Part shown: positions 62,526 through 63,122 of the stretch, piece by piece | Layout of the letters: every line of letters starts with the position of its first letter | Numbering within the stretch: the stretch's first letter is position 1 | NCBI RefSeq assembly: GCF_988242995.1 | Contig: NZ_OZ547043.1 | Direction: 5' to 3' (one strand) | Length of the DNA stretch: 64,000 bases | The notes under the pieces: generated by a model | The model's database searches: none | What the model saw: only the letters and a program-made list of their open reading frames with translations | What the model was told of the DNA's origin: nothing | Translations under genes and position numbers: made by a program

Positions 62526-63122
62526 ATGGTGGCCTGTTTGGGAGAAATAGCAGTGGTTTGTGGCGCGATCGCAGCAGACGGCATAAGTCCGCTAATGAAA
62601 GCCTACATCAAGTCAAGCGAGGATATGGTAGTCGGATATATCGGCGAAGGTTCCTCTGCCGAATTAATGTCTGTTTGGCAGCCGTCACTTGAAAATGTGG
62701 CAATAGGTGGAATTTTTGGCAAGCTGGCGGATACGGCGCAGTTGATTACCGGACACACAACCAAAAGCCGCCTCAACGCTACCCTTGTGTGGGAAGGGCA
62801 GCAGCCGCCGGAATTTACCCTTGTCCTAGATTTTTTAGCGATGTCCAACGCAAAAACGGAAGTGAATGATGCCATTACGACGTTGCTGAAAATGGCATCG
62901 CCAGAACTAAACGACATTACGCCTTTTGGTCGAGTCCCGGAAGCCGTAACGATCAATATCGGCAGAAACGTGATGTTAACGAACGTTGTGATCAAAAGTG
63001 TGAGCTATCAGCTTGATGCCCCTCGCACACCGGAAGGCTATTTCACTCACAACACGGTAACACTTCTATGCAGTGGGAACACTTCTCTCAACCGCAGCAA
63101 TATATCATCTGTTTTTGTTTAG
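62526..63122 (+). CDS. hypothetical protein; island terminal cargo ORF
   Basis: 198-aa ORF (alternative start at ATG 62625 with GAGGA SD would give 165 aa); no recognisable motif; last gene before attR. Confidence 0.5.
   Translation: MVACLGEIAVVCGAIAADGISPLMKAYIKSSEDMVVGYIGEGSSAELMSVWQPSLENVAIGGIFGKLADTAQLITGHTTKSRLNATLVWEGQQPPEFTLVLDFLAMSNAKTEVNDAITTLLKMASPELNDITPFGRVPEAVTINIGRNVMLTNVVIKSVSYQLDAPRTPEGYFTHNTVTLLCSGNTSLNRSNISSVFV

Follow-up and report, generated by a model that had tools for sequence, protein, structure and literature searches.

We found that the last open reading frame (ORF) of a chromosomal island in Escherichia coli is, with near certainty, an intact gene for a tube-linking protein of the PmgG family, an orphan copy that came from a D6-like phage-plasmid. 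The island lies in a 64,000-nucleotide stretch of contig NZ_OZ547043.1 (NCBI RefSeq assembly GCF_988242995.1), which we call the window and whose first letter is position 1. A preliminary description, made from the letters only, had regarded the ORF as cargo of unknown function without any motif that it could recognise, and neither statement holds at the level of the protein family. The search against PHROGs gave one strong match, phrog_1114 'PmgG-like' (E=9e-60, profile positions 16-226 of 229), and a sequence search of the PDB retrieved the solved PmgG chain of phage P1, 9ay5_G (also 9vzk), at E=4e-41, with query residues 16-197 aligned to 11-192 of 193. A translated search of phage genomes identified P1/P7/D6-type phages only, the identity being 72% to D6 orf46 and ~41% to P1 PmgG. 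The AlphaFold model, which was built with 31 homologs, consisted of a core with a predicted local distance difference test score (pLDDT) of 80-92 and one long low-confidence loop (residues 38-83 of 189). Its top Foldseek matches were again 9vzk_2 and 9ay5_G, with template modelling (TM) scores of 0.69-0.81 and a probability of 1.00, and the next ones after these P1 entries were baseplate tube-initiator chains of contractile injection systems.

Remote-homology and structure searches had been proposed in the preliminary description. Searches of Pfam, PADLOC and NCBIfam with the protein indeed gave nothing meaningful (PADLOC-DB 2.0 held no family at E<=1), while PHROGs, the PDB and AlphaFold with Foldseek identified PmgG, so that the clear homology to a phage structural protein that the description had itself named as evidence against its view is what was found (TM 0.7-0.8 at the fold level). 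Weak metallo-beta-lactamase and Glypican matches were dismissed as noise. The view that the gene is cargo of a new kind, such as a toxin, a defence effector or a virulence factor unrelated to phage structure, would fit the variable position beside the right attachment site (attR) and the blank Pfam and PADLOC searches, but it is refuted by the full-length sequence and fold identity with a solved phage baseplate protein, and we give it hardly any credence.

The role of the family has been worked out in phage P1, where PmgG is virion-associated and essential; its deletion leaves no tails and gives polysheath- or polytube-like structures, and HHpred assigned the protein as T4 gp48-like (PMC9024508). 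P1 PmgG has a tube-like fold and forms a hexameric tube-linking ring, with the trimeric baseplate hub (gp6) on one side and the tube-initiator ring (Tub) on the other; the ring mediates the change from six-fold to three-fold symmetry, and the sheath initiator PmgA docks on it (PMC12810830; bioRxiv 10.1101/2025.07.21.665459). The hexameric ring in the baseplate and the presence in virions are established for P1 PmgG only. The island protein matches P1 PmgG (9ay5 chain G, 9vzk) over the full length, with 41% identity, the same tube-like fold (TM 0.7-0.8) and the same length including a shorter loop. However, pmgG of P1 is a member of the late operon 23-22-21-pmgG-bplB, which is transcribed from the late promoter LP23, whereas the island copy stands alone, without a late promoter or partners. 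T4 gp48-like proteins and the tube initiators of injection systems share the tube-like fold and the position at the base of the inner tube (PMC9024508; Foldseek E 1e-3 to 1e-2), but the likeness is at fold level only, with 13-19% identity over ~100 residues and other partner proteins. For a gene listed as 'unknown' the family is thus identified, and the structure of that family and its role in P1 were worked out in 2022-2026; what is new here is not the protein but its orphan context, the gene conversion between island and phage copies and the diversity hotspot at pmgG that are described below.

The gene and its translation signals were placed as follows.

62526-63122, + strand: maximal ORF of the ORF list, 198 codons, uninterrupted; the first 9 codons are probably untranslated
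62553-63122, + strand: pmgG-like coding sequence, 189 amino acids, GTG start and TAG stop, placed by homology, the start being kept in homologs
62540-62545, + strand: Shine-Dalgarno sequence GGGAGA, 7 nucleotides (nt) before GTG 62553, identical in phage-plasmids and D6
62516-62533, + strand: intercistronic hairpin GCCACC-TGTAAT-GGTGGC from the donor's gp21-pmgG junction, conserved in phage-plasmids and D6
62472-63126, + strand: segment that stems from a D6-like phage-plasmid, with 85-87% nt identity to E. coli and E. marmotae phage-plasmids of ~90-95 kb

When the upstream region was aligned with the homologs of phage-plasmids, D6 and P1, the hairpin, GGGAGA and a GTG or TTG start at 62553 were conserved, and the N-terminus after this start reads M(V/I)CGAI..DGISP in the homologs. 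GTG 62553 is therefore most likely the true start, which would give a protein of 189 amino acids. The start called by the Prokaryotic Genome Annotation Pipeline is TTG 62538. Both starts offered in the preliminary description are unlikely: ATG 62526, which D6 lacks, sits within the loop of the hairpin, and ATG 62625, which is preceded by a Shine-Dalgarno sequence and would leave 165 amino acids, would cut off the conserved N-terminus ADGISPLMKAYIKSSED that aligns to resolved residues of P1 PmgG. The hairpin folds, yet no better than shuffled sequence (z=-0.76).

Nucleotide similarity to the phage-plasmids was confined to 62472-63126, and this segment holds the last ~50 bp of a gp21 homolog, the short intergenic region, pmgG, and the stop with 4 nt that belong to the Shine-Dalgarno sequence of bplB. 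Donor-type plasmids carry RepB and ParM together with genes in the order capsid, Ig-like, sheath, gp21 homolog, pmgG and bplB, and they are therefore D6-like phage-plasmids. The closest relatives of the island gene are D6 orf46 and the pmgG genes of ~90-95 kb phage-plasmids of E. coli, E. marmotae and Salmonella; the identity is 82-86% (amino acid) and 85-87% (nt) to those of E. coli and E. marmotae and 72% (amino acid) to D6. The island allele shares with D6-like pmgG the hairpin, the Shine-Dalgarno sequence, the GTG/TTG start and polymorphisms in a short internal patch (62813-62954). Unlike these genes, it is chromosomal and orphaned, and it has PSL for the conserved SPF and alanine for an invariant serine. 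A single tail gene was thus cleanly excised from a phage-plasmid operon into a chromosomal island, and records of it are about as frequent as those of the closest alleles on phages.

We then placed the island itself by alignment with the empty site of E. coli K-12.

54339-54415, + strand: tRNA-Pro(GGG) gene proL (ARAGORN), with the core of the left attachment site (attL) at the tRNA 3' end; identity with K-12 runs to 54417
54418-63339, + strand: island body, from the empty-site alignment, the annotation of the near-identical LH13-b locus, PHROGs and Rfam
63340-63362, + strand: attR, a degenerate repeat of the tRNA 3' end, TTAAACTACTCTCGTG--GACCAAA, from the K-12 empty-site alignment

The site is proL, between yejM and the autotransporter gene yejO, and in K-12 the empty proL-yejO site is a gap of only ~100 bp. 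With attL and attR so placed, the island measures ~8.9 kb and the ORF is its terminal gene, ~220 bp from attR, in agreement with the preliminary description. The island was compared with 5426 complete E. coli genomes. About 50 of them carry sibling proL islands whose identity to this one is 95-98% both across window 54418-62369 and from ~63198 on, and which have ~72 bp where this island has the 828-bp segment 62370-63197. The segment with pmgG occurs in only two complete genomes, LH13-b and 2017.11.01CC. The LH13-b island differs from that of the window by one base. In 2017.11.01CC (L005 8978-9946), an insertion sequence, IS5, replaced the region from DUF4222 to the iterons (window ~57200-62400), i.e. 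the replication module, and the integrase, AlpA, Icd and pmgG-like genes are still intact. Related islands at tRNA-Gly carry a different four-gene cassette after PerC. Siblings without the gene and another cassette in the tRNA-Gly family indicate that this end of the island family is a variable cargo region, and the accessory position that had been suggested from the sequence is borne out.

Two short stretches flank the captured segment.

62370-62471, no strand assigned: left junction, a remnant of an older island arm; homology with L006 8925-9158 runs up to window 62459, and sibling proL islands stop at 62369
63127-63197, no strand assigned: right junction, particular to pmgG-bearing islands and 100% conserved in all of those compared

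At the left junction the segment shows microhomology only (CG.AAGTC). The right junction sequence, when searched in the 5426 E. coli genomes, matched only in the two islands with pmgG. A 65-codon ORF on the - strand at window 62289-62486 is the truncated 3' remnant of a gene for 138 amino acids, into which the pmgG segment was inserted; this minus-strand gene is intact in the tRNA-Gly island family (L006 9018-9437), and a full-length homolog in a tRNA-Gly island (L011 24246-24662) had no match among PHROG or PADLOC families. It is nearly certain that illegitimate recombination joined a piece the size of one gene, from the tail operon of a D6-like phage-plasmid, to the variable right arm of a proL island of the integrase/AlpA/C4-Icd/primase type, and the piece has retained its native hairpin, Shine-Dalgarno sequence and GTG start.

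The position between a gp21 homolog and bplB is true of P1, D6 and the phage-plasmids, but not of the island copy. When one genome per species was scanned, 16 more homologs were obtained, each of them in sheath-gp21-pmgG-bplB synteny on a contig of <=156 kb. In a collection of 5.8 billion proteins, the island allele forms its own cluster, with 15 sequence or start-call variants in up to ~300 contig records; the nearest relatives outside this cluster are 82% identical and lie on ~90-kb contigs. Every member of the >=90% cluster whose context was checked lay in the same proL island with the same junctions, and no other orphan pmgG was seen among the 16 species-representative loci or the cluster members checked. 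The island copy is the sole orphan observed, and it goes back to a single capture event.

We further studied how the island alleles vary. There are two island lineages, whose backbones are 89-97% identical and whose pmgG genes differ at 17-18 sites, most of them in one patch.

62813-62954 (142 bp), + strand: gene-conversion patch in pmgG, in which 14 of the 17-18 sites that distinguish the two island alleles lie

In this patch the island allele of locus L028 agrees with the phage-plasmid CP159120 at 13 of 14 sites, and the window allele agrees with an E. marmotae phage-plasmid at 10 of 14. Since the junctions are identical in both lineages, the patch is attributed to gene conversion with phage-borne pmgG after the capture, which means that islands and phage-plasmids meet in the same cells. 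The exchange thus documents gene flow between an integrative island and phage-plasmids. A comparison of the two island alleles, with 13-14 synonymous and 4 non-synonymous nt changes, had looked like strong constraint after the capture, but this estimate was discarded, as the changes cluster in the 142-bp patch copied from phages; because of this gene conversion, the low non-synonymous count cannot be read as selection.

Compared with the phage alleles, the differences of the island allele are concentrated in the low-confidence loop, which has a 7-residue deletion and a unique sequence, and the ratio of non-synonymous to synonymous substitution rates (dN/dS, omega) in the loop is 0.4-0.8. For the gene as a whole, dN/dS was 0.23 between the island and phage-plasmid alleles and 0.25 between two phage-plasmid alleles; the two values are alike, which an unsampled donor explains. 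With the deletion, the loop has the length of that of the functional P1 PmgG. The island protein also departs at P54S, F55L, S85A and Q181L from residues that are at least 90% conserved in 65 homologs. Position 85 is serine in all 65 others, and the closest relatives show 0-2 such departures.

The diversity of pmgG is not confined to the island. D6 (L022 5958-6452) and a second D6-like contig (L031) are 99-100% identical in sheath, gp21 and bplB, and only 74.6% in pmgG. Similarly, a pair of phage-plasmids from E. coli and E. marmotae (L002 and L024) is 98.4-99.6% identical in the flanks and 91.2% in pmgG. The gene is a sharp diversity hotspot in D6-like phages, with replacement of single-gene alleles within a conserved tail operon, and this calls for an explanation. 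L031 (CALWLV010000256.1) is an 11-kb contig in a metagenome-assembled genome of 'uncultured Roseburia sp.' and is 99% identical to the D6 tail genes; it is probably a binning contaminant from an enterobacterial phage-plasmid.

No other virion gene is present in the island, which leaves a D6-like phage within the same cell as the only thing on which the product can act. We consider that the gene is a captured passenger under no selection, with a probability of roughly one half. The passenger would have arisen as a by-product of recombination while an island and a phage-plasmid shared a cell, would be intact since the capture is young, and would, at each new encounter of the two elements, still undergo gene conversion with phage alleles. 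What favours a passenger, at these even odds, is the single capture, the low frequency among siblings, the lack of a visible promoter, the very low diversity, the dN/dS against phage alleles, which is no different from that between phages, the lack of further orphans in the loci checked, and the two examined LH13-b plasmids, neither of which is D6-like; the intactness of the gene needs no selection, because the island copies are nearly identical. Upstream of the gene, a scan for sigma-70 promoters gave one 9/12 site (62431-62459), the site counts being not above those of shuffled sequence, and no P1-type late promoter (AAGTNACTT-N3-5-TAnnnT) was present there, although this motif is scarcely found in D6 either and is uninformative for D6-type phages. 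The preliminary description had suggested independent expression of the gene, which is not supported, as these scans revealed no promoter above chance.

A number of observations weigh against the passenger. Pairwise omega is ~0.07 at a dS of 0.38 in the C-terminal part (from codon 85), and with the variable loop set aside, 17 synonymous and 6 non-synonymous codon changes fall on the branch of the island allele. The cassette is 97.4-100% identical between the island lineages while the immediate flanks are 86-90%, so that it looks spread across backbones. No truncated or frameshifted copy was found in up to ~300 contig records, save one fragment at a contig end, and among these records of intact copies are two backbones that share no more than 89-97% identity and a host in which the flanking yejM is only 89% identical to that of E. 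coli. In 2017.11.01CC the gene was kept beside the IS5 that deleted the replication module, and its native translation signals have been retained. There was no phage-borne counterpart of the island allele in the 5.8-billion-protein collection. Finally, the pmgG hotspot in phages hints at a locus under conflict.

The main alternative is that the island PmgG would be a poisoning subunit, which we regard as possible but doubtful. Of the anti-phage or helper-interference roles suggested for this position in the preliminary description, only this form is left, a structural subunit directed at D6-like phages. The variant would co-assemble with PmgG of an incoming or induced D6-like phage-plasmid and stall the assembly of baseplate and tube, since a ring of six subunits must fit both the hub and the Tub ring; few infectious phage would then be released, and the population would be protected or the island favoured. 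PmgG is a ring-forming hexamer and essential, deletion of pmgG giving no tails, and the island allele differs from the nearest phage alleles mainly in the loop (7-residue deletion, omega 0.4-0.8) and by the altered conserved residues P54S, F55L, S85A and Q181L. Moreover, pmgG alone is swapped between tail operons that are otherwise 99% identical, as would be expected under conflict; the gene is intact everywhere, also after loss of the replication module, and the cassette is better conserved than its flanks. However, no promoter above chance and no P1-type late promoter was seen in the upstream scans, there was one capture event and only ~4% of the sibling islands have the gene, and PADLOC has no match. 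The shorter loop also has the length of that of P1 PmgG; being shared with a functional protein, it suggests that the allele may be an ordinary phage allele. We know of no tail-subunit decoy in a satellite, which likewise counts against poisoning.

In favour of poisoning, blocking of tail assembly is a proven defence strategy, as shown by Tab, the tail assembly blocker of a Pseudomonas prophage, through which a chromosomal mobile element halts the tail assembly of invading phages; the target of Tab is the tape measure protein, and there is a cognate anti-Tab (PMC10884400). The proposed interference by the island gene would operate in a similar manner. To our knowledge, Tab is not a homolog of a tail subunit. 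It is conceivable, though we would not expect it, that the island domesticated PmgG as a dominant-negative decoy that enters the hexamer of the phage and aborts its tails, from which phages would escape by swapping pmgG alleles. A decoy, if real, would explain the hypervariability of pmgG within 99%-identical tail operons and the continued exchange of patches between island and phages; it would be the first structural-subunit decoy aimed at the tail and the first satellite-like element tied to phage-plasmids. Interference of this kind would represent a new strategy of defence or of satellites, a subunit decoy against tails, and would suggest that phage-plasmids are the helpers or the targets of such islands.

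Recombination might also be the use of the gene. The ~650-bp shared stretch would serve as a homology handle for recombination between the island, once excised and replicating, and a D6-like phage-plasmid resident in the same cell; the resulting ~100-kb cointegrate could be packaged by the headful and carry the island to new cells, and conversely the island would supply pmgG alleles to phages. The gene-conversion patch shows that island-borne and phage-borne pmgG recombine, and the island has an integrase, AlpA and a replication module of its own without any packaging function. Recent horizontal spread is also seen in the right arm, which is 100% identical between hosts whose flanking genes are 85-89% identical. 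At locus L019, the arm 62370-63345 including pmgG is 99.8-100% identical to the window, and yejM and yejO of the host are only 85-89% identical, which indicates that the island, or its arm, has recently moved between lineages or species of Escherichia. However, the sampled phage-plasmids are no more than ~86% identical to the stretch, a poor substrate for a RecA-dependent crossover, no cointegrate was found on any plasmid record searched, and sibling islands without the gene are commoner and so spread without it. We therefore think a homology handle or allele reservoir unlikely.

The role of a spare part adapted to a satellite was considered as well: the island would be a satellite of D6-like phages, and its PmgG would replace the helper subunit to make tails that favour the satellite. 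Satellite-encoded structural proteins reshape helper assembly in several systems, namely Sid and Psu of P4, the capsid-protein homolog Ccm of SaPIbov5, and capsid-forming phage-inducible chromosomal islands (PICIs), and this counts in favour of such a role, as do the full length of the gene and its kept translation signals. As in the island, a mobile element carries there a structural protein or homolog, which in those systems acts on helper assembly; but P4 Sid/Psu and SaPIbov5 Ccm act on the capsid, belong to a conserved satellite core and come with other hijacking genes, whereas the island pmgG is of tail type, rare and alone. Against a spare part, the island has no capsid, terminase or packaging-redirection gene, and most sibling islands lack pmgG. 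The AATGATCC repeats of the island differ in arrangement from the putative pac region of D6, with a shared 11-mer that is not significant, and the recognition loops of the island C4 RNA are unlike those of D6 and P1. Such a role is very improbable, and the unselected passenger remains the reading that we prefer.

The make-up of the island itself bears on these comparisons, and the following features were placed in it.

56826-56913: C4 RNA of the island (Rfam)
59803-59934: iteron cluster 1, the partner of the cluster at 62096-62230 (repeat search, motif counts)
62096-62230: iteron cluster 2, GACTTGTCCCACC and its complement (repeat search, motif counts), which is the 'repeat cluster' of the preliminary description

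All genes of the island are on the + strand: the integrase gene int, an AlpA-like gene, an isrK-like/C4 RNA, and genes for an Icd-like protein, DUF4222, a DUF927 primase-helicase, SSB, a ProQ/FinO-like protein and PerC. PHROG matches were obtained for the integrase (phrog_1), the AlpA-like protein (phrog_66) and the primase/DUF927 protein (phrog_1139). Among the island ORFs, annotation and PHROGs identified no capsid, terminase, capsid-redirection or packaging gene; there was likewise no member of the psu, delta or sid families, with no unassigned ORF of fitting size, and no rpp/terS or capsid module of Gram-negative PICIs. The island resembles P4-like satellites and Gram-negative PICIs in its tRNA-targeting tyrosine integrase, AlpA, a C4/CI-type antisense RNA with an Icd-like gene, iterons that flank a primase-helicase, and variable cargo towards one end, and differs from them by lacking psu/delta/sid, rpp, terS and capsid genes. 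It may accordingly be a satellite, and the near-identical right arm in hosts with 85-89% identical flanks and the gene conversion with phage-plasmid alleles are indirect hints that a helper phage might induce and transfer it. A literature search on DUF927-bearing satellite islands, or on satellites of P1 or phage-plasmids, found nothing relevant. The plasmids of LH13-b that were examined, of 121 kb and 80.6 kb, are not D6-like.

At window 56725-56913, directly 5' of the Icd-like gene, there is an isrK-like RNA of 47 bits, slightly short of the gathering score (50), together with a C4-family antisense RNA of 76 bits; with this gene they are an immunity module of the P1/P4 type. Shared immunity with D6-type phages was considered and rejected, since the loops of the island C4 RNA differ from those of D6 and P1 C4 and Icd is only weakly similar.

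The GACTTGTCCCACC-type iterons occur in both orientations, and their two clusters bracket the SSB-ProQ-PerC block. This arrangement recalls the ori/crr pair of P4 and may be read by analogy as an ori/crr-like pair; the iterons are presumably the binding sites of the DUF927 primase-helicase. Between PerC, which ends at 61297, and the ORF there are ~1.2 kb of mostly non-coding DNA with an iteron cluster. The ~1 kb of non-coding DNA and the repeat cluster given in the preliminary description were therefore largely confirmed, except that a small ORF with a PHROG match (61354-61563) lies inside.

Four AATGATCC repeats, each with a Dam site, were found at 61614-61832, two of them direct (61614 and 61636) and two inverted (61784 and 61825) around an A-rich centre of ~140 bp. 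The repeats recur, conserved, in sibling proL islands, but the tRNA-Gly family has none of them. Mimicry of a pac site was considered because the repeats resemble the GATC-cluster elements of D6 pacA (L025 3715-3846), and it was rejected, as the orientation pattern differs and the shared 11-mer is expected by chance.

In the tRNA-Gly island of E. coli SCU-105 (L011 15631-23292), the cassette between PerC and the terminal arm encodes proteins of 843, 686, 918 and 104 amino acids. None of the four matched PADLOC, and the cassette may be an undescribed defence system. Finally, the single base that separates the window island from that of LH13-b, A instead of G at 60649, creates an in-frame TAG (60648-60650) in the ProQ/FinO-like gene, and this gene is split likewise at locus L014.

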